From Escherichia phage Ecp_YSF: a DNA stretch of 53,268 nt. The number at the start of each line of letters is the position of its first letter. The stretch's first letter is position 1. Below the pieces are notes generated by a model, which was given only the letters and a program-made list of their open reading frames with translations, was not told where the DNA came from and ran no database searches. Shown here one piece after another: positions 10,051-49,547 of this stretch. The DNA is taken from the sequence record OR327751.1, one strand, 5' to 3'. A program made the position numbers and the translations under genes.

Positions 10051-10236
10051 ATGCGCACAATACAATGTCCTAACTGCCATTATGAAATTGCAGAAGATGA
10101 TTTCATAACGCAGCAATGTCCTATCTGTGATTCATACATGCCACTAAACCGCCTGTACTTAAAGGCCGATTCTGGTTTAGGCAGCATCATTCGCATCAAT
10201 CCCGTGCAAACTCAGCCATTAGTGGATTGTGATTAA
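10051..10236 (+). CDS. small zinc-ribbon protein (61 aa)
   Basis: CPNC...CPIC pair of CxxC knuckles. RBS GGAG at 10041-10044. Confidence 0.55.
   Translation: MRTIQCPNCHYEIAEDDFITQQCPICDSYMPLNRLYLKADSGLGSIIRINPVQTQPLVDCD
10211..10233 (+). promoter_or_regulatory. weak phage-promoter-like site ahead of the packaging genes
   Basis: ATTAGTGGATTGTGAT (10218-10233) matches the ATTAGTTGGATGTGAA core at 12 of 16 positions. Confidence 0.3.
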
Positions 10237-12274
10237 AAACAAAGAGAACGAATCAATGTCAAAGACTGATGACCTCGGACCGGAGTTTAATGATACAGTA
10301 GCCTCGTATCTTGCCAAGCACTACGGTGACGTATTAAAAGTCTCAAGAGAAAGATTCTGTATTCTATCTTTGCCATTGCTCCGTCGATATATTTCAGAAA
10401 ATACTGCAATAGTTGACAGCTATGAAGAACAAATTCAAGCAGAGTTAGAAGGCCAGGGTCTTGAAAACGATGCTGTATTGCGTTCCGTTTTCAGAGCACA
10501 ACTTGAGCGTCTTCGCTCTGGCGACAAGAAAGACTCGACTGCCTATGCAGATGAGTTGAAGAAAGGTATTCAAGCAGGTGTTACTGACCGTGTTGCAGGT
10601 TCCACATTAGAGGAGCCAAACTCGGAGCATGATAACACCGAGGAACTTGTAGACAAGATTCTGCATGACCCACATAACGTGGACCCAACTGTAATCCCTG
10701 CCAAGGTTGCAGAACGTGTTCGCAAAATCTTGATGAAAAGTTTCGAAGCCTTTGGTAAATGGCAGTTCCATATTCAGATGGGATTTCCATTTCAAGCACA
10801 AGACTTTCATGATGTAATATTCAGTGTTGGTCAGAAGGTTGTTGATGGTGAGATTGACCGCTTAATAGTGACCATTCCTCCACGACACTCTAAGACTCAG
10901 CTTATGAGTATTGCATTGCCCTTGTATTCATTTTGCCACAATGAATCGAGCCATAACATTATCACCTCGTATGCAGAAGACGTTGTTCTTGAATCGAGTG
11001 GTTACATCCGTGCTGTAATGATGGACCCACTGTTCCAACGAATATTCCCGAAGGTGAGAATCGACCCTAACAAACGTTCACTTGAACGCTGGGGTACAAC
11101 CAAAGCTGGAGTTATGCACGCAGTACCTACTGGTGGTAAGCTAACTGGTAAAGGTGCTGGACTTCTTGTTGCAAAATATTCCGGCTGTTTCGTGGTGGAT
11201 GACGTTATCAAGCCGAAAGATGCCTACTCTGACACAGTTCGAGCAGAAATCAACGACCGATTTGATAACACCTTTATGTCACGTCTTGCCAACGATGGTT
11301 GCATAACTGATTCGTACGGAAACCAAATTAAGTGTGCCCGTACACCAATGGTTATCATCATGCAGCGAGTTCATGACCAGGATTTAGTTGGTTACATACT
11401 CCGTGGTGGCTCTTCTGATAAATACCATTATCTCAATATCCCAGCGATTATTGAGAAAGGAGTTGGAAGTGCTGAGTGGTATGATAAGTTAATCAAGAAG
11501 CAGAACTACACTCATGCTATTCCCATTCTGTATAATTTGAACAGGAAGGAAGAGAAGTCTGCATTATGGCCTTCACGTAAGAGCTTAGAATCCCTGGAGG
11601 CAATGAAAGAGTCTAACCCATACACATACAATTCACAGTATGCTGGCGACCCATCTGCACAAGGCCACGGCCTTATCAAAGAAGATTGGTGGCAAGAGTA
11701 TGAGCCAGACGTTTTCGACAGAAGTCGCATAGTCAGAAGTTTTATTACAGCGGATACGGCATCAACTGCCAAATCCTATTCTGATTATTCGGTCCTTAAG
11801 CATTGGGGCGTGACTAAAGAGCGTGATGTTTATTGTTTAGATATTATGCTCGGTAAGTTTGAAACTCCAGAACTCAAGACTGCTATCATCGACTTCTGGA
11901 ACAAATGCAACAAGTTGGACTTGAAGTGTGTAGGCTGTATTCCTCGTGCATTGTACATGGAAGACAAGTCTGCCGGACAATTCTTGAACCAACAATTTAT
12001 CAGAGATGGGAGTGTCCGAGTTTTACCATTGCCTCGTGATGGGATTAATGGTAATGACAAGGTAACTCGATTCCTTAACGCAATCCCATATTTCTCACAA
12101 AAGAGAATATTCTTCCCTGCTGGTCATGAACACATCGACCACGTTAGACGTGAAATACTTGGATTCACTTCTTTGGGTAGTGGTACTGGACACGACGATT
12201 GTGTCGATAACGTTTCAGATATGGTTGCAATCGAATTCTCAGGCCCAAGTGCCAACTACTCCGCATGGATGTAA
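10229..12274 (+). CDS. terminase large subunit
   Basis: Walker A-like IPPRHSKTQ and Walker B-like CFVVDDVIKP, with a nuclease half. About 190 aa of N-terminal extension. The true start may be ATG 10256. Confidence 0.85.
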   Translation: MIKNKENESMSKTDDLGPEFNDTVASYLAKHYGDVLKVSRERFCILSLPLLRRYISENTAIVDSYEEQIQAELEGQGLENDAVLRSVFRAQLERLRSGDKKDSTAYADELKKGIQAGVTDRVAGSTLEEPNSEHDNTEELVDKILHDPHNVDPTVIPAKVAERVRKILMKSFEAFGKWQFHIQMGFPFQAQDFHDVIFSVGQKVVDGEIDRLIVTIPPRHSKTQLMSIALPLYSFCHNESSHNIITSYAEDVVLESSGYIRAVMMDPLFQRIFPKVRIDPNKRSLERWGTTKAGVMHAVPTGGKLTGKGAGLLVAKYSGCFVVDDVIKPKDAYSDTVRAEINDRFDNTFMSRLANDGCITDSYGNQIKCARTPMVIIMQRVHDQDLVGYILRGGSSDKYHYLNIPAIIEKGVGSAEWYDKLIKKQNYTHAIPILYNLNRKEEKSALWPSRKSLESLEAMKESNPYTYNSQYAGDPSAQGHGLIKEDWWQEYEPDVFDRSRIVRSFITADTASTAKSYSDYSVLKHWGVTKERDVYCLDIMLGKFETPELKTAIIDFWNKCNKLDLKCVGCIPRALYMEDKSAGQFLNQQFIRDGSVRVLPLPRDGINGNDKVTRFLNAIPYFSQKRIFFPAGHEHIDHVRREILGFTSLGSGTGHDDCVDNVSDMVAIEFSGPSANYSAWM

Positions 12275-12489
12275 ATATGGCGGTTATCACTCGTTTAGAT
12301 GCCCGCTCACGCAAGAACAACTCCTTCCAGATTCAAGATTTGGAAGGAAACATTTTATGTGTGATTGAGGCAGTTTCTACCACAGAGAGCGACTGTGTTA
12401 AGTTAAAGCACGAGTCAAATCTGCGACTCCACACCTCCGACAACATTCAAATTGTTAAGGGTAATGGAACTATTCTAAGGAAGAAATAA
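12265..12489 (+). CDS. hypothetical protein (74 aa)
   Basis: Small ORF between the terminase and portal genes. ATG 12277 is an alternative start. Confidence 0.45.
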   Translation: MDVNMAVITRLDARSRKNNSFQIQDLEGNILCVIEAVSTTESDCVKLKHESNLRLHTSDNIQIVKGNGTILRKK

Positions 12490-13805
12490 TGACTTCCAAG
12501 AAGAAAAACAATCTTTCTGTTAAAGTTGCAGATGGGTTAGAAAACCTCGTAACAGGGTTGGGCGGTCAGGCAGATAAGTCCACTTTTAACCAGTGGACTT
12601 TCTCAAACAAGAACGCGAACTATCGCGAACTTATGAACCGCTTCCGTGAGGACTGGGTTGCACAGAAAGTGTGTACCGTCATTCCTCAGGACATGACGCG
12701 TAAGTGGCGACATATTGATACCGAAGAAGGACGCAAAGCGGATAAGAAACTTCGTATCCGTAAGCTGTTCCGTGAAGCATATCAATGGGCCAGATTGTAT
12801 GGTACTTCATTTGTTCTGCTCGACCTGAAAGGTACGGGCAAACTTGATACACCATTGCGACTGGATAACTTGAAGACTGGATGTATTAAATCCATGAGAG
12901 TTATTGACCGCTCGCGCTTATTTGCCGCAGGGACTATGGTTCTGGACCCTATGAGTCCTCACTATGGTTTGCCAGAGTATTACACTTTGGCTGGATATCC
13001 CGGCTATATCCACTACACTCGTTTTCTTCGGTTCGAGGGTACTGAACTGCCGCTGTTCGAATTCCAACGTAACATGTGGTATTCCGATTCGGTACTTATT
13101 CCACTGCTGAAAACGATTGACCAATTCTACACAACTGCCGCTGCTGCTGCCAGCCTTGCCCAAGAAGCCACCATTGATGTGGTAACTGTTGAAGGCTTAC
13201 AATCTCTGCTTACATCACCGGAAGGTGAAGCTGCTGTGATGAAGCGCTTCAAACTTATGAAGCTGGCAAAGAGTATTTATAACGTCTTAATTCTCGACAA
13301 CACTGAGAAGTATGACACCAAGTCAATTGCACTATCTGGTGTGAAAGATTTGATTTGGGAATACTTAAAGATAGTTGCTGCCGCAGTTGGTATTCCGGCT
13401 ACACGTTTCCTTTCTGCATCTCCAGACGGTATGAACGCTACGGGCGAATCTGACCTCGTAAACTATATCGACTTGTTGACAGGCTTGCAGACTTCTGTGT
13501 TCGACCCTCGTTTAGATGTGGTAGACAAGATTGTCCAGGCGCACTTTGGCATCGAAGAATATGACTACGAATGGTTAGATATCTTCCCTGAATCCAATGT
13601 TGAGAAAGCGAAGCGAGCTAAAGATTTGGCATTCGCTGTTGACCTGCTGGTTAACAATGGCACTATAACTACCGAAGTTGCAAACGAAGTCATGTTCCAT
13701 TCGGGCGTGTTCGGAACTTGTGACCTTGGCAAGCCAAATCCTAATCCTCCTAACATCCAAAAGGGTAACGCAAGTGAAGCAAAACCAAAACCTGGTTCAG
13801 CTTAA
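12489..13805 (+). CDS. portal protein
   Basis: 438 aa directly after the large terminase. The pattern resembles the DUF1073-type portal family (from memory). Confidence 0.75.
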   Translation: MTSKKKNNLSVKVADGLENLVTGLGGQADKSTFNQWTFSNKNANYRELMNRFREDWVAQKVCTVIPQDMTRKWRHIDTEEGRKADKKLRIRKLFREAYQWARLYGTSFVLLDLKGTGKLDTPLRLDNLKTGCIKSMRVIDRSRLFAAGTMVLDPMSPHYGLPEYYTLAGYPGYIHYTRFLRFEGTELPLFEFQRNMWYSDSVLIPLLKTIDQFYTTAAAAASLAQEATIDVVTVEGLQSLLTSPEGEAAVMKRFKLMKLAKSIYNVLILDNTEKYDTKSIALSGVKDLIWEYLKIVAAAVGIPATRFLSASPDGMNATGESDLVNYIDLLTGLQTSVFDPRLDVVDKIVQAHFGIEEYDYEWLDIFPESNVEKAKRAKDLAFAVDLLVNNGTITTEVANEVMFHSGVFGTCDLGKPNPNPPNIQKGNASEAKPKPGSA

Positions 13806-14847: not shown

Positions 14848-15321
14848 ATGCCAAAGCAAGATTGGTCTATTAATACTGGTGAAGCATATGCAGGTGAACA
14901 ATATGGCCTGGCTACCACCAACTCCCAGCGCCTGACCTACGTTGCCGAAGAAGAAATGGCAAACTTTGGTCTGGCTGTTGTTCAAGGTACAGCTTCTAAT
15001 CAGGTTAAACCTGGTATTGGTTCTGATGGCACTGTTCTGGGCATTACCATGCGCCAGATTAATATCGAATCCGCTACTCGTCCTGGTGACGGTACTGTTG
15101 CAATCAAAGTTGGCTGGCCTCTGGGTGTTATGCTGTCTGGCCCAATCATGGTCAAACTGAAAACTGCAATCACCGACAAGAACATTGGCGTATCCACTAA
15201 AGGCGAATTTGGCGGTGTTGGTGCTGGGTATACTAAAGCAACCAACCTGACTGCCCTGCGTTATCCGGCTTCCGCTGGCGATGTTGTCCCGGTCATGATT
15301 AACGTAGTCCCAAAGCCGTAA
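14848..15321 (+). CDS. capsid accessory / putative head decoration protein, short isoform (157 aa)
   Basis: RBS AAGG lies upstream. Highly biased codon usage. Positioned between the scaffold and major capsid genes. Confidence 0.6.
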   Translation: MPKQDWSINTGEAYAGEQYGLATTNSQRLTYVAEEEMANFGLAVVQGTASNQVKPGIGSDGTVLGITMRQINIESATRPGDGTVAIKVGWPLGVMLSGPIMVKLKTAITDKNIGVSTKGEFGGVGAGYTKATNLTALRYPASAGDVVPVMINVVPKP

Positions 15322-15614
15322 CGCCACCTCCAGCCCCTACAGTATCTGCTGTAGCTGGAGTTGTAACGGCTGATGCGTCTTCTACTGATGCCACTGTAAC
15401 TGTAGACAAGCTGTTCAAGTTTGGGAACTCTACAGCAACAGATTATAACTTCGCTGTTACACCTCCTGTGACTGGTGTTTCTGTGGCGGCAAACGGCACT
15501 GTGACTGTCTTGAATGAGACGACCACAGAGACTTCTGCTACAATTAAGGCAACAAACAAAACAACCTCTAGCGTAACTGCGACCAAAGAAATTACCATTA
15601 CGCCGAAGGCTTAA
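14848..15614 (+). CDS. same protein, long isoform made by a -1 frameshift at C CCA AAG (15309-15315), adding a 99-aa Ig-like domain (about 255 aa)
   Basis: The -1 frame is open 15303-15611 and has no start codon. Canonical X XXY YYZ heptamer sits 4 nt before the stop. Hairpin at 15328-15360. The extension shows an Ig-like beta-strand pattern. Confidence 0.55.
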
Positions 15615-15669
15615 GTTGCAATGGCGCAATTAATGGTTGCGCCTCATCAAACAAAACGGATTAATTTAC

Positions 15670-16677
15670 ATGCCTAAGATGATTAAACTGGCGGACGGTT
15701 CTGAATTTGAACTGAACGACGCTATCACCCGTATTCAGGATTCTGGCACTGTTGTCCTGAATGACGACGATGCAGTATTCTTTCAACGCCAGCTTGAGTT
15801 CATTGAAGCTCAAACTTACGACACTCTGTATCCAGAACTGGAAGCTCGTGCTGCTTTCGGTGTGGACACCACTGGTGGCGCTGGCGTAAACACTCTGACC
15901 TACCGTTCCTACAACCATGTTGGCAAAGCCCAGGTAATTAACGCCCGTGCAACCGACCTGCCGAAGTCCAGCATTTCTGGTAAAGAATACAGCATCCCTG
16001 TTAAATCAGTTGGTACTGCATTCGACTACGATATTGACGAAGTAGCGTCTGCTGCTGTTACTGGCCTCCCGCTGGAAACTCGTAAAGCGAATGCTGCTAT
16101 TCGTGGTTACGAGCAGTATGTTAACTCTGCTGCATGGTACGGCGATAAAGCTAACGGCTTTGTTGGCTTCTTCGAAAACCCAGACATTACCAAAGCAACT
16201 GTTGCTCAGGGTGCTGGTGGTTCTACCAAGTGGGCCGAGAAGACCCCGACCGAAGTTATTGCCGACCTGACTGCTGCTGTGTCTGCAATGTATGCTTCTA
16301 CTCTGAAAATTATGCGCCCGGATGAAATCTGGATGCCTGTTGAGCATGAGCAGTACATCTTCAACACTGCACGTTCTGAACAGTCTGATAAGACGATTGG
16401 TCAGTTCTTCATTGACAACAACCAGTTCATCAACTCCCGCGATAAAATCAAGGGTCTGAACGCAATCAAAGGTCACGGCGATTCTGGCTCCGATTGCTTC
16501 GTTGTTGTTTGCCGCAATGCAATGGGCAACCGTACTTTCCGTCTGCGTGAGCCTCTGCCACTGACCTGGCAACCGGTACAGCTTCATGGTCTGGTTTATG
16601 AAGTTCCTGGCCGTGGTCGTTTCGCTGGCTTCCAAGCGATGTACCCGGCAGCAATCTCCATCAACTCCGGCATCTGA
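15670..16677 (+). CDS. major capsid protein
   Basis: About 335 aa with very strong codon bias, in the expected position. The ORF-track start TTG 15637 lies inside the hairpin GGCGCAA/TTGCGCC (15623-15643), so ATG 15670 is preferred. Confidence 0.8.
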   Translation: MPKMIKLADGSEFELNDAITRIQDSGTVVLNDDDAVFFQRQLEFIEAQTYDTLYPELEARAAFGVDTTGGAGVNTLTYRSYNHVGKAQVINARATDLPKSSISGKEYSIPVKSVGTAFDYDIDEVASAAVTGLPLETRKANAAIRGYEQYVNSAAWYGDKANGFVGFFENPDITKATVAQGAGGSTKWAEKTPTEVIADLTAAVSAMYASTLKIMRPDEIWMPVEHEQYIFNTARSEQSDKTIGQFFIDNNQFINSRDKIKGLNAIKGHGDSGSDCFVVVCRNAMGNRTFRLREPLPLTWQPVQLHGLVYEVPGRGRFAGFQAMYPAAISINSGI

Positions 16678-20362: not shown

Positions 20363-20821
20363 ATGGCTTGTGAACTTCGTCAACGCGAGTTACAAGCCGA
20401 CTCTGGTGATGTAGTCTTGGTTGGTACTCGTCAATTGAGTGCCAGCCAAGCTCTTGACCTACAAGTCGAGCTTGTTCAGAAACTTGGAACTTCAATCTTC
20501 CCATTCGTTGAGAATAAATATAACTTTGCAGACATTATTTATTTAATGCAGCAAGGTGGGACGAGTAACGAAGTAACAGAATTAATTAAACGTGTAGTGT
20601 GTATGGCAACCATTGATGGTGTCGAAGTTACTCCACGCACTATGCAAATGAAATACAACGGCAACTTGATGCTTATGCACCATGTGTTTGCATTTGTTTT
20701 GGAATCGAACTTCCTTGATTTTTTCAAGCAAGGGCTCGAACTCAACGAACGCAGACGATTGGAGGCGGTGGAAGCATCCAAGATGGCCGAGCAGAAGAAT
20801 TCGAGTCCGGAAACGATTTAA
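20363..20821 (+). CDS. tail assembly chaperone, short form (152 aa)
   Basis: Lies just upstream of the tape-measure-position gene. Confidence 0.6.
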   Translation: MACELRQRELQADSGDVVLVGTRQLSASQALDLQVELVQKLGTSIFPFVENKYNFADIIYLMQQGGTSNEVTELIKRVVCMATIDGVEVTPRTMQMKYNGNLMLMHHVFAFVLESNFLDFFKQGLELNERRRLEAVEASKMAEQKNSSPETI

Positions 20822-20997
20822 CTGCAAAGTTCCCGGAAATAAAATACTTCTTGCACCGTCCTGTAATAGAGGACAGTTCACTCTGTTCTCTTAAAGAGTT
20901 ACAAGATGGGACCTACTCTATTATGGATTTGTTGACCTTCCACGCAATACTCGATTTGCGTAACGAATTAAAACCTAAAGAAGAAGACAATGGCTAA
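20363..20997 (+). CDS. tail assembly chaperone, -1 frameshift long form (slip at T TTT TTC, 20719-20725; about 211 aa)
   Basis: The -1 frame is open 20719-20994 and ends at TAA 20995-20997, overlapping the ATG of the next gene. No start codon of its own. Confidence 0.55.
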
Positions 20998-23900
20998 TAA
21001 CATAAAAGATTTGATGAGAATGTCCGAAGCCGAATTGATTGGCTTAGGCGCTCAATATGGTCTGTCGTTCAATCCAGGTATGCGCAAACGAGATATGGCA
21101 CAGCAACTTGAATCAAGTGCTGCATCTGGTTGGATGGAAACAAATTCGCAGCTTATGGAAGAAACCCATACAGAAGATGATGGCATCTCTTATGGCACTT
21201 CCGACATGATTTCAGACTCAGCCCACATTGCACAGATGATTTCTGGCGCTGGGCTGACTGAAACATTCCATGCTGCAATGAACGGTCCAAGTCACCATGT
21301 AGAAGCTATTCATGCCTACATGGAGAAATTAGGTGTATCCGCCGATGATGTGTGGATGCACATGCCCAAAGCAAACCCGAACAAACCGGAAGGTCATTGG
21401 GGAATGCTTAATGCGTACATGCGTGATACGCTGACAGGCCATCAAGATATAATGCCAGAGCTTCCTGGACATTATTCGGGCGACATTATGGGCGAGTATT
21501 CCACAAACCGTGGAGATATTGCCAAGTCGTTCGGCTATCTTGCCCACATGTATGTTGACCGTGAACAATACGACAACCCAGACCGCTATGCACGAGATGT
21601 TTATCGTGTAGCCAAACGTTTAGAATCAGAATTGCCGCAAAACTTCCGAGAAGTTGCTGCGGTATCTGCAATGAATGTAGGAAATAAGTCGGGGCCAAAA
21701 CTTTCATACATGGATTCATTGCCTAAACTTGGCTCTGAATCAATTGTTAGTGGTATCCAACACCCTCGACAGCCACTTAACGCATCTGGTTTACCACTTG
21801 GTTCATTTGGCAGCGGTATTAATGCCGAATACTCATTATCTGCATCCTTGTCTGGCTCGCCAGGCTGGTCTGATGTAAGTAGGACTCTGTACCAAGATGT
21901 TTCTAGCGTAGTTAAGTCTGCGGCAAAGGTCTATTCTGGTGATTCTGAAAGAGGAATGAACGCGTACCGCACTCAATCTTCTGACAGAGATTTGATTCTT
22001 GATTCTGCTTCCCGCTATGCAGACATTATAGATGTTCGTTCTGGGTATGAGAATCTTAAGAAAGATATTGGTGACGACCCTCGCTACTCTGGTGCATCCA
22101 TCCGTGGCGTACTTGAGAATGCTCACCAATATAATGAGGCAGAGGTAAGCAAGACATTTGACCCTGCTGAACGCTTAAGAAACACTGAACCTGCCGAACT
22201 AAGCCCTTCAACAGAGTTTATTACGCAACTCGATTCACCAACGAGTTGGAACTCTGCTCGCGCTCGTCGTGAGAGTATTGCTATATCTAACTTGGACTCT
22301 GCTCCACAACCAGCTCCGAAAGAAGGCCCAATCCATTATCACAACATGGAACAGGGAACTCAGGAATGGTTGGACTTCCGCAAACAATACGACATTACTG
22401 GCTCCACTGTTGGTTCGTTTCTTGGTAACAATGAATACACCCGACCTTGGGCTGCAATGATTGATAAAATTGGCCTACAACGCGGAAAGGGGCCAAGTGA
22501 ATTTACTAAAAGAATGTTCGAAGCAGGTCATCGGACGGAAGAAATTGCTCGTAACCGTGTCGCCAAAGAGTTTGGATTCGATATCGAGCAAGCTGGCGCA
22601 ATAACAAATGACAATTATCCGTCGTTCATGTATTCTCCAGATGGCCTTATCGGTGATGACGCGATTTGGGAACACAAGAATCCTGAAAGGGCTAAAAAGT
22701 TTTCTAATCTCTCTGCTGGCGAGCATAAGGACTATTTCGACCAAATTCAATTTGGCTTGCTTGTATCTGGCCGTAGTCGTGCACTGTTCTCTCAGACAAT
22801 CGGGGACAAGACGGTATCTGAGTGGATTGAGAAAGACGAGGGATGGTACGAGCGCAACAAAGATAAGATTGATTCTACTATTGGGCGTCTCAATGCTGGT
22901 CGAAAGTTTGTTGAAGATAATCCAGACTTACCTAATGATGAGTTAATCAAGGGTGCTCGTGCTGCAATGACTGGCGATGGCATCTGGAAAGATGTTAAGC
23001 AAAGGTCGACTCGTGGATATTCTGCCGCAGCTGGAACACCTGATGACCCATTCATAGGCAACCGCACTGATGCTGGAATTGGCGAGGCCACGACTTCTGC
23101 CGTAGGCTCTGACAGCACGACTGGCAATGACTCGATGGCAGTATCTGTCAAGAAAGGTATTCTTGCTGCACAGGAAGAAAACAAACTGCGCGGACAAGAT
23201 GCCGACTTTGGTGGAAATGATGGTCGTGGTGGCGGTGGTGGCTTCTGGGATACATTTGATGCCAGCAGTTATGGTATCAGCGGAGGTGGTTCTGGTGGCG
23301 GTGGTCGTGGTGGTTGGAGAGTTGGCGGTAGCTTCTCAGATGACTTCGGTCGTGCTGGTGGGGCATTGGCTGCTGGCGTAGCTGGTGGCAGTATTGGTTC
23401 ATTATCCAATGGCGCAATGAATGCCCTCATGATGACTCCTTGGGGTCGTGTAGCTGGCATGGCTATTGGTGCTGCCCAGATTGGAAACGAAGCTCTGGAA
23501 GGTCTGAACGACTTCTATGGCAATTCTTTAGATGCTGGTGTTAATAATCCTAACGAGTATTCTTCCATGACTCAGGGCATGGAAATGTTGGGACTTAACT
23601 CACAACAAGCCAATCGACTCAATCAAACCACACATAGTGCCTATAACACCCTCCTAAATGGCGACCCCAGCGGCGCTGTGAACATCGTTCAGGGAACCCG
23701 TGGTCTTATCACAATTGGCGACATTCGTGCGGCACAGGGCGACCCTGTGGCCCTAGCGCGGATAATGCGTGAGCGTGGTCAGGAACGGGGTTGGAGTCAG
23801 GCCCGTATTGCTGGTGCAATGCAAATGGCTGGTCTGGATGGTATGGCTCGTGCCTATGACCGTACAGAATACAGCATGGGCGAGGCTGAGGCGAACGTTA

Positions 23901-24661
23901 AGCGCGGAGCCGACTCAAACTATGCCGAAGGCGTTGCACAGCTAGGAATCGCGCAGACGGAGCGTGCTGGCGTACTGCCTGGATACGCTGTTCCGCAAGC
24001 TGCAATTTCATACGGCAGCACCTTTATTGAGGCAGGTGGTGACGCAGCCAGAGTGATGCGTATGACCTCCAACGGTACAGCCGATGCAGCACGTAATGTT
24101 TATGACTTTATCGCGGGAGAAGAGTCAGGGAACCGCGATTTTAACGCAGATGGTTCGGTAGTTACATCGCCAACTGGTGCTAAAGGTCGTATGCAAGTTC
24201 TTGATTCAACTTCTCGTGACCCTGGCTTTGGTGTTCGTCCTGCCAAAGATAACTCACTTGAAGAACGTGCTCGTGTTGGTCGTGATTATTACGATGCAAT
24301 GCTTAAGCGATATAATGGTGACGCTGAGAAGGCTATGGCGGCGTATACAGATGGTGCCGGGACTGTTGATGATGCTATCAACAAACATGGAACCGACTGG
24401 CTGAACGCTGTTCCACTACAGGCACAGAACCGTGTCAAGAAGTACCGCGAATGGGCTTCTCAGGGAGATTCTATTGCAGAAGGTGCAACTGGATTCACCA
24501 GAAACGGACTGTCCTATGGTCAGACACAGCCCACCATAGTTAACGTTGAAGTCAAAGCTACCGTAAACAACAAACAAGCGTCTGCAACCGTGTCAACTCC
24601 GAACGGTCAAACTGTTACCCAAACAATCAACATGGGTAATGGTGCAATGGAACGCAGATAA
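20990..24661 (+). CDS. tape-measure-position multidomain protein: HeH/Rho_N-like N-terminus, YqaJ-type PD-(D/E)XK nuclease domain, Gly-rich/hydrophobic segment, C-terminal lytic transglycosylase
   Basis: HeH pattern LMRMSEAELIGLGAQYGLSFNPGMRKRDMAQQL. YqaJ pattern QGTQEWLDFRKQYDITGSTVG...YSPDG...WEHK, with D551, E561 and K563. SLT pattern EESGNRDFN...GAKGRMQVLDST...AAYTDGAG. Confidence 0.7.
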   Translation: MANNIKDLMRMSEAELIGLGAQYGLSFNPGMRKRDMAQQLESSAASGWMETNSQLMEETHTEDDGISYGTSDMISDSAHIAQMISGAGLTETFHAAMNGPSHHVEAIHAYMEKLGVSADDVWMHMPKANPNKPEGHWGMLNAYMRDTLTGHQDIMPELPGHYSGDIMGEYSTNRGDIAKSFGYLAHMYVDREQYDNPDRYARDVYRVAKRLESELPQNFREVAAVSAMNVGNKSGPKLSYMDSLPKLGSESIVSGIQHPRQPLNASGLPLGSFGSGINAEYSLSASLSGSPGWSDVSRTLYQDVSSVVKSAAKVYSGDSERGMNAYRTQSSDRDLILDSASRYADIIDVRSGYENLKKDIGDDPRYSGASIRGVLENAHQYNEAEVSKTFDPAERLRNTEPAELSPSTEFITQLDSPTSWNSARARRESIAISNLDSAPQPAPKEGPIHYHNMEQGTQEWLDFRKQYDITGSTVGSFLGNNEYTRPWAAMIDKIGLQRGKGPSEFTKRMFEAGHRTEEIARNRVAKEFGFDIEQAGAITNDNYPSFMYSPDGLIGDDAIWEHKNPERAKKFSNLSAGEHKDYFDQIQFGLLVSGRSRALFSQTIGDKTVSEWIEKDEGWYERNKDKIDSTIGRLNAGRKFVEDNPDLPNDELIKGARAAMTGDGIWKDVKQRSTRGYSAAAGTPDDPFIGNRTDAGIGEATTSAVGSDSTTGNDSMAVSVKKGILAAQEENKLRGQDADFGGNDGRGGGGGFWDTFDASSYGISGGGSGGGGRGGWRVGGSFSDDFGRAGGALAAGVAGGSIGSLSNGAMNALMMTPWGRVAGMAIGAAQIGNEALEGLNDFYGNSLDAGVNNPNEYSSMTQGMEMLGLNSQQANRLNQTTHSAYNTLLNGDPSGAVNIVQGTRGLITIGDIRAAQGDPVALARIMRERGQERGWSQARIAGAMQMAGLDGMARAYDRTEYSMGEAEANVKRGADSNYAEGVAQLGIAQTERAGVLPGYAVPQAAISYGSTFIEAGGDAARVMRMTSNGTADAARNVYDFIAGEESGNRDFNADGSVVTSPTGAKGRMQVLDSTSRDPGFGVRPAKDNSLEERARVGRDYYDAMLKRYNGDAEKAMAAYTDGAGTVDDAINKHGTDWLNAVPLQAQNRVKKYREWASQGDSIAEGATGFTRNGLSYGQTQPTIVNVEVKATVNNKQASATVSTPNGQTVTQTINMGNGAMERR

Positions 24662-48969: not shown

Positions 48970-49260
48970 ATGATTCGCAAACATTCTATCCGGGTAATTA
49001 AGGCCCGTAATATTCACACAGGAGAGATGGAAGCATTCGCTTTCTTGGGTGGAAAGTTTTATTTATTTGGTTGGGAAGGAAGTGATTTAAAGTTTGAATT
49101 CTTTATGAATATGTACTCGATTAAAGAGTTGTTAAACAATGCGACCTACGGACCATCCTACATGGAATATTGTTTCGGCAAGCCAGTCGAGCATCTTCTG
49201 TCCAAATCTTTCATTTACAGCTGGACAACAAACCAACCAGTTTACGGAGTTCCATTTTGA
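48970..49260 (+). CDS. hypothetical protein (96 aa)
   Basis: ATG 48970 lies 7 nt after GGAG. The ORF-track start 48796 extends into ORF-free structured sequence. Confidence 0.55.
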   Translation: MIRKHSIRVIKARNIHTGEMEAFAFLGGKFYLFGWEGSDLKFEFFMNMYSIKELLNNATYGPSYMEYCFGKPVEHLLSKSFIYSWTTNQPVYGVPF

Positions 49261-49547
49261 ACTTACAAGACAAATCTAAAGAAGAGTTGATTGAGATTAT
49301 CCAGAAAGAGCACGAACTCGCTGGCATCACAATCAACTATGAACTCCGGGCAATGCAAGCTGTTGCTTTGGGTCATGGTCTAATGGCTACACTCATTCAT
49401 GCCAAGAATGTGTTAGGCATTGACAACGAAAAATACCAAATTCTGGAGAAAGCTGCGCAAGAGCGGATTTCGCAGTGCTTGGTGACATTAGTTGATTTGG
49501 GAATCGACGCAGAAACTGCGAACAAACGTATCCTACAAGGCCACTAA
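49257..49547 (+). CDS. hypothetical protein (96 aa)
   Basis: TTG 49257 shows TTGA coupling with the upstream stop, and GGAG (49246-49249) lies 7 nt upstream. Confidence 0.5.
   Translation: MNLQDKSKEELIEIIQKEHELAGITINYELRAMQAVALGHGLMATLIHAKNVLGIDNEKYQILEKAAQERISQCLVTLVDLGIDAETANKRILQGH
49480..49502 (+). promoter_or_regulatory. weak promoter-like site inside coding sequence
   Basis: GTGACATTAGTTGATTTGGGA. The core matches at 11 of 16 positions. Confidence 0.25.

Follow-up and report, generated by a model that had tools for sequence, protein, structure and literature searches.

A probable programmed −1 frameshift joins an immunoglobulin-like domain to the capsid cement protein of Escherichia phage Ecp_YSF and related phages

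Immunoglobulin-like (Ig-like) extensions that are attached by ribosomal frameshifting are established on the coat and major tail proteins of several phages, including T3, Lactobacillus phage A2 and the Listeria phages A118, A500 and PSA, with the extension of T3 10B being Ig-like and that of T7 not (PMC5009743). Capsids may also carry separate cement proteins, such as gp24 of phage E217, which is a beta-tulip trimer located at the threefold and quasi-threefold axes (PMC10329688). Here we describe the cement protein gene of Escherichia phage Ecp_YSF (OR327751.1; 53,268 nucleotides (nt), the whole of which was analysed and is referred to as the window), and the reading frame that overlaps its 3′ end. 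Based on sequence comparison, we conclude with high confidence that the cement gene in this phage and in almost the whole of its subfamily uses a programmed −1 slip, which would give a minority product in which the cement protein is fused to an Ig-like domain. The features of the locus are as follows:

14848..15321, + strand: cement (decoration) protein gene, an open reading frame (ORF) of 157 amino acids (aa; 16.3 kDa), Pfam PF22758, PHROG 563
15309..15315, + strand: slippery heptamer C CCA AAG in the X XXY YYZ register, read from the sequence; proposed site of tandem −1 tRNA slippage
15319..15321, + strand: 0-frame stop codon TAA, one codon past the heptamer
15315..15338, + strand: Pro-rich linker AVTPPPAP, the first 8 codons in the −1 frame
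15316..15369, + strand: downstream RNA stem-loop, a possible stimulator, with an inner hairpin at 15328-15360 and an outer helix in which 15316-15323 is paired with 15362-15369
15339..15611, + strand: predicted Ig-like (Big_2/Hoc-like) beta-sandwich domain in the −1 frame
15612..15614, + strand: −1 frame stop codon TAA, the end of the predicted 255-aa trans-frame product

The 157-aa ORF matched PF22758 (Phage_cement, 'Structural cement protein (E217 gp24/Pam3 gp6)') over residues 4-152, with E = 2.5e-17 and 63.8 bits (cut-off 27), thus passing the curated threshold, and also belongs to PHROG 563, a virion structural protein. Its tail reads GTC CCA AAG CCG TAA, which places the heptamer in register with the 0-frame codons. 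The −1 frame is without stop codons from 15303 up to the TAA at 15612-15614, giving 99 extension codons, and its earliest start-like codon (ATG, GTG or TTG) is a GTG at extension codon 52 (position 15468), which lacks a Shine-Dalgarno sequence. The predicted products are 157 aa (16.3 kDa) and 255 aa (26.1 kDa) in size, the latter encoded by 14848-15315 joined to 15315-15614. Trypsin is predicted to cut the fusion at the K|A junction and release the peptide AVTPPPAPTVSAVAGVVTADASSTDATVTVDK, which begins at the first −1 codon, where there is no start codon, while the predicted junction-spanning peptide after Asp-N digestion is DVVPVMINVVPKAVTPPPAPTVSAVAGVVTA. The preliminary description of this locus, made from the sequence alone, had proposed the heptamer at 15309-15315, the TAA at 15319-15321, an open −1 frame from 15303 to 15614 without a usable start codon, the peptide encoded by that frame, and products of 157 and about 255 aa; all of these agree with the sequence and with our calculations.

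The sequence CCCAAAG is not enriched in the genome, with six copies versus 6.9 expected, and the genome-wide count was dropped as a test of significance and replaced by a test that combines register, position and an open −1 frame. Of the 122 ORFs in the window that are ≥80 aa long, this test selected only two, the cement locus and the ORF at 49170-49547, in each of which an X XXY YYZ motif lies in register ≤60 nt from the stop codon and the −1 frame is open for ≥50 codons. The ORF at 49170-49547 has a poor motif (T TTG GGA at 49496) and a −1 frame open for 54 codons, and probably reflects chance or simply the next gene. The other CCCAAAG on the + strand, at 21365, is read as CCC.AAA.G within the tape-measure ORF, and was rejected as a slip site as it is in the wrong register.

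The locus was subsequently collected from GenBank phages, IMG/VR and metagenomes, resulting in 41 distinct sequences, of which 27 have a −1 extension (93-192 codons) and 14 do not. An in-register X XXY YYZ heptamer was present in 26/27 of the sequences with an extension versus 1/14 of those without (Fisher p = 1e-8, uncorrected for shared ancestry), and the check that the preliminary description had suggested, namely whether relatives conserve the heptamer and keep the −1 frame open, thus came out in its favour. The heptamer was C CCA AAG in 24 of these, with one C CCA AAA and one G GGA AAA, and the sequences span at least six genera plus metagenomic lineages, while the group without extension consists of the Nefertitivirinae of Shewanella, Aeromonas and Vibrio and several metagenomic lineages. 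In an alignment of the 37-nt context (13 distinct contexts), the heptamer was the sole fully invariant block. The codon preceding it varies (GTC, GGC, ATC, CTC, GCC and TCC, encoding Val, Gly, Ile, Leu, Ala and Ser), and always has C as third base; that the amino acid changes and the final C is kept suggests a constraint at the nucleotide level. Sequence L030, which lacks an extension, provides a natural control, as it retains the Pro-Lys pair encoded by the non-slippery CCG AAA.

The substitution pattern in relatives indicates that the −1 frame is under strong purifying selection from the first codon past the slip site. In length-matched relatives, there were 38, 30 and 83 variable sites at codon positions 1, 2 and 3 of the −1 frame, respectively. 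Over the whole extension, 54% of the codon differences were synonymous in the −1 frame, versus 14% and 4% in the other frames, and the relatives had no stop codons in the −1 frame and 4-10 in the others. The signal was strongest in extension codons 1-30, with 67% synonymous differences in the −1 frame versus 16% and 1% elsewhere.

The extension is confidently predicted by modelling to adopt a Big_2/Hoc-like Ig fold, and is thus considered Ig-like by fold, with sequence membership of Big_2 being unsupported. AlphaFold2 with a 12-sequence alignment gave an all-beta domain of nine strands (predicted local distance difference test score (pLDDT) of 94.5), for which Foldseek matches were T5 pb6, phi29 gp8 and 'bacterial Ig-like' and BIG2 proteins of other phages. 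Five of the nine predicted strands precede codon 52, and therefore a product started at that codon would not be expected to fold. The extension was also matched by PHROG 13745 ('Ig domain containing protein', E = 1e-7), a family which is probably made up of these same ORFs. The PF02368 Big_2 profile did not match the window extension, and the variant in sequence L028 scored below threshold (E = 0.051). A PDB sequence search with the 255-aa fusion gave no matches, and a single-sequence AlphaFold2 model of the whole fusion (pLDDT 37) was unusable.

Several observations weigh against programmed frameshifting to an Ig-like domain. Proteus phage Myduc has an extension of 111 codons, but only G GCA AAG (the A AAG tetramer) followed by TAA at the position of the heptamer. 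Conversely, sequence L026 has kept the heptamer, yet its −1 frame closes 13 codons past the slip site. Four of 17 relatives (BSBP01, PYps23T, EaPF9 and Y2) have a GTG at extension codon 10, which is not preceded by a Shine-Dalgarno sequence. Neither a conserved stimulatory RNA structure nor an upstream Shine-Dalgarno-like element was found in the family. Pfam did not report a significant Ig family for the window extension, with only a sub-threshold match to Rpf1_C, and the Big_2-type Ig-like domain of the preliminary description hence stands by its predicted fold and by PHROG 13745, but not by a Pfam Ig match. Finally, neither virion proteomics nor ribosome profiling was found for any member of the group, and the publications describing ST32, PP101, SKA49 and the PYps phages report no virion mass spectrometry.

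With regard to the RNA structure, RNAfold predicted an inner hairpin of 13 base pairs (bp; 7+6) with a 3-nt bulge, starting 12 nt past the heptamer. The stem-loop has a free energy of −22.1 kcal/mol (z = −3.2), and none of 200 shuffled sequences folded as well. The hairpin was significant in the window, GJ1, Faunus and Fifi451, and had a z-score above −1 in 8/16 relatives (BSBP01, UViG33, PYps23T, PM1, 4HA13, Y2, Orgeat and Myduc). In TH26 and UViG33 the inner stem contains a single compensatory pair, which is suggestive although slender evidence. The bulged hairpin of 12 bp noted at 15328-15360 in the preliminary description therefore exists, with 13 bp, but was rejected as a family-wide stimulator since it is not conserved across relatives, and the absence of a conserved stimulator means that the efficiency of slippage could be low. 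The annotation of the stem-loop at 15316..15369 as a rho-independent terminator, as in SA91KD, is unsupported in the window, where there is no U-tract. The adjacent stop codon may contribute to slippage as a 'shifty stop'.

Of 64 heptamers tested for −1 frameshifting in E. coli, C_CC.A_AA.G was reported to be the most efficient, reaching 54% with the IS3 pseudoknot, and it is also listed among the motifs giving >0.10% frameshifting without a stimulator (Sharma et al., PMC4066793). Slippage could alternatively be non-canonical, with only the A-site tRNA-Lys slipping on A AAG, aided by the nearby stop codon, and the CCC merely being tolerated. The Myduc sequence fits such a mechanism, as do the 0-frame stop codons that directly adjoin the heptamer in Y2, Orgeat, Fifi451 and SSEM1, and A_AA.G is indeed the best tetramer in E. 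coli; the tetramers are, however, reported to fall approximately 10-fold short of the best heptamer in efficiency and to depend on a strong stimulator (PMC4066793). Furthermore, the third-position C of the otherwise variable preceding codon is invariant in all 24 CCCAAAG sequences, and as only the tandem slip requires this C, it argues for tandem slippage and makes single-tRNA slippage highly improbable.

The extension has mostly been annotated as a gene in its own right. Among 13 annotated records, ten call a separate ORF of 45-164 aa, labelled 'hypothetical', 'Ig protein' or 'Ig domain containing protein', and three call nothing, while none of the GenBank records examined has a joined coding sequence at the locus. 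This would correspond to an independent small gene, using its own GTG or TTG start codon or translated by reinitiation after the cement stop codon, and giving a free Ig-like protein, for which the GTG at codon 10 in the four relatives mentioned above could serve. However, the position of the start is not conserved, as the database proteins for the extension begin at at least six different alignment columns, and there is no start-like codon before codon 52 in the window or before codon 80 in Fifi451, while the earliest in PM1 is a TTG at codon 32. Such late starts would cut off more than half of the beta-sandwich, and every candidate start lacks a Shine-Dalgarno sequence. The purifying selection on the −1 frame peaks in codons 1-30, which lie upstream of most of the starts chosen by annotators, and an independent gene leaves unexplained why the invariant heptamer is locked in register, and why it is absent where the extension is absent. 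A free Ig domain would also be without an evident route for binding to the capsid. We therefore consider an independent gene to be very unlikely.

The frame layout could also result from a sequencing indel in what is truly an in-frame fusion, or represent an untranslated, decaying remnant. The disruption of the module in L026 while the heptamer persists would fit with a relic, but the same layout recurs in >25 genomes and metagenomic contigs that were sequenced independently, and the strong purifying selection with zero stop codons reduces the probability of an artefact or relic to almost nil. Transcriptional slippage is unlikely on a run of just three A residues. In the metagenomic relative L026 (OGVK01000246.1, 1965-2640), CCCAAAG is followed by 13 Pro-rich linker codons and a stop codon, and then by an unrelated 0-frame ORF of 214 aa, which has its own AGGA-N5-ATG, lacks a Pfam match and takes the place of the Ig module. 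This looks like a recent replacement of the module rather than a counter-example.

Under the programmed −1 frameshift that we propose, most ribosomes would terminate at the TAA at 15319-15321, yielding the cement protein of 157 aa. On C CCA AAG, a minority of ribosomes would move back by a single nucleotide as the tRNAs in the P and A sites shift their pairing to CCC AAA, and would then read the −1 frame through the Pro-rich linker and the Ig-like domain (~90 aa) up to the TAA at 15612-15614, giving the 255-aa fusion. The fusion would keep 156 of the 157 cement residues, and with the cement domain essentially whole in both isoforms, both should assemble on the capsid; if they follow their homolog E217 gp24, they would do so as trimers located on the threefold and quasi-threefold axes. 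The Ig-like domain would thus be displayed on a fraction of the subunits, where weak adhesion to surface glycans is its most plausible role. The sequences show the conserved, in-register slip site, the open −1 frame, the coding constraint that starts there and the absence of a conserved start codon, and modelling shows the Ig-like fold; that ribosomes do slip, how often they do so, and that the fusion enters the capsid and acts in adhesion is what we infer. Slippage is expected to be a minority event, which would fit with a trimeric cement lattice that is perhaps intolerant of an additional domain on every subunit.

The domain behind the slip site differs between lineages, while the Pro-rich linker is conserved even where it is followed by an unrelated domain, and is Gly/Ser-rich in one lineage. 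The window-type domain is found in coliphages, Yersinia phages, the Erwinia phages Y2 and EaPF9, Faunus and 4HA13, with a distant form in PM1 and L028. A classical Ig_3/Hoc-like type is present in Orgeat, L027 and L043, with matches to PHROG Hoc-like and major-tail Ig families at 1e-21 to 1e-26, a third type occurs in Fifi451 and L029, and a fourth in Myduc. Orgeat and Y2 are both labelled as the species Loessnervirus Y2, and have unrelated domains (Hoc-like/Ig_3 versus window type). In L003, L062 and L022 (flopper, SA91KD and OWJB01000229.1), the extension of about 193 codons contains two tandem Ig-like copies joined by a second PPAPT linker. A more distant locus, L056 (IMGVR_UViG_3300036796_000019, 1962-2297), encodes a cement protein with ~40% identity and has G GGA AAA five codons before the stop codon, followed by a Gly/Ser linker and a −1 extension of 104 codons, with a further beta-rich domain that has weak similarity to He_PIG, PKD and invasin. 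This lineage suggests either a greater age of the arrangement or more than one origin.

The best 120 cement homologs in the clade were all 145-177 aa in length, so that in none of them is the module fused in frame; extra in-frame or inserted domains were seen only in distant Phage_cement members, none of which has a Pfam Ig assignment. The lack of in-frame fusions among these 120 proteins, together with the at least four unrelated or distant domain types, the tandem copies and the difference between Orgeat and Y2, are consistent with the slip site and flexible linker being a conserved 'display port' across the Cleopatravirinae. This would function as a natural, sub-stoichiometric phage-display cassette for swapped or duplicated surface domains, with the efficiency of frameshifting limiting the decorated subunits to a level at which the cement lattice can still assemble, although we put this forward tentatively, as a possibility somewhat short of even.

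The genome in the window is that of a complete or near-complete phiEcoM-GJ1-like myophage (Chaseviridae, Cleopatravirinae, Carltongylesvirus-like), with Shigella phage vB_Shi_2KOFFS as best DNA match (98.5% identity). The cement locus is part of a head module, with the following neighbouring features:

10229-12274: large terminase
12489-13805: portal
up to 14838: DUF2213 protease/scaffold
between the 157-aa ORF and the major capsid gene: gap of 348 nt without a conventional gene
15670..16677, + strand: major capsid protein gene (Pfam PF09950, E = 1.5e-48), starting 55 nt past the extension stop codon

The gap without an ORF between cement and capsid genes that the preliminary description had pointed out is hence present, at 348 nt. 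Between the extension stop codon and the start of the capsid gene (15615-15669) there is a GC-rich hairpin (GGCGCAA...TTGCGCC). The equivalent site is labelled as a rho-independent terminator in SA91KD, while the window lacks a clear U-tract and the hairpin was not called by our scan. The record PP952070.1, named 'Staphylococcus phage Pel53' (host S. hyicus), has 90% DNA identity to these enterobacterial phages over the locus, and its host label looks doubtful.

A candidate −1 frameshift for a tail-assembly chaperone was also detected in the window, in a 152-aa ORF (20363-20821) where T TTT TTC lies in register at 20719-20725. Just before this heptamer the −1 frame is closed by a stop codon; past it, 90 codons are open up to the stop codon at 20995-20997, located at the start of the 1223-aa tape-measure ORF (20990-24661), with a predicted fusion of ~210 aa. 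The presence of this candidate site of the classic tail-chaperone −1 type at 20719 in the same genome was counted in favour of frameshifting at the cement locus.

A 2020 review of decoration proteins does not mention frameshifting (PMC7602432), and the E217 paper, as far as its text was covered by our search, contains no mention of an Ig extension or recoding of gp24 (PMC10329688). Literature searches combining Chaseviridae/phiEcoM-GJ1 or decoration protein with frameshift gave nothing on this locus, with the original phiEcoM-GJ1 and Y2 papers falling outside the search. Hence, frameshift attachment of Ig domains is already known, and we found no earlier report of a cement or decoration protein as the carrier. 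If frameshifting at the cement locus is correct, the annotation of a whole phage subfamily would be corrected, including candidates for biocontrol and therapy such as the Erwinia Y2-like phages, coliphages, and Yersinia and Pectobacterium phages, and cement/decoration proteins would join the carriers to which recoding adds Ig-like domains. Two capsid decorations would then come from one gene, with the structural cement present on every subunit and a putative adhesin on only a few, and the conserved slip site and linker with their naturally exchanged domain would constitute a ready low-copy display site on these capsids.

The lambda G/GT tail chaperone gene uses the slip heptamer G GGA AAG, and resembles the cement locus in that ribosomes slip by −1 on a heptamer of the type X XXA AAG and make a fusion as the minority product, but it differs in gene and function, and the cement fusion presumably forms part of the virion. 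The Ig-like decoration proteins T4 Hoc, T5 pb10 and N4 gp17 are separate and conventionally translated, and bind as monomers through a dedicated capsid-binding domain, whereas in the present case the cement protein itself would serve as anchor, and the level of display would be set by the frameshift efficiency. Like E217 gp24 and Pam3 gp6, the N-terminal 156 residues match PF22758 well above its cut-off, although with too little sequence identity to give a match in the PDB. The T3 and T7 10A/10B proteins share with the cement gene a −1 slip in the last codons of a capsid structural gene, an assembly domain common to both isoforms and a longer isoform that is in the minority, but there the recoded gene encodes the major capsid protein, while here it encodes a cement/decoration protein, with C CCA AAG as the slip site. 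The analogy to T7 drawn in the preliminary description therefore holds for the mechanism, but T3 is the closer parallel as the T7 extension is not Ig-like (PMC5009743). The frameshift-attached Ig domains of A2, A118, A500 and PSA (Fraser et al. 2006) are likewise mobile C-terminal domains on a fraction of the subunits, with coat and major tail proteins as the carriers reviewed (PMC5009743). Unlike in those systems, a single cassette of slip site and linker is conserved here across a subfamily, while the domain it carries is exchanged or duplicated.

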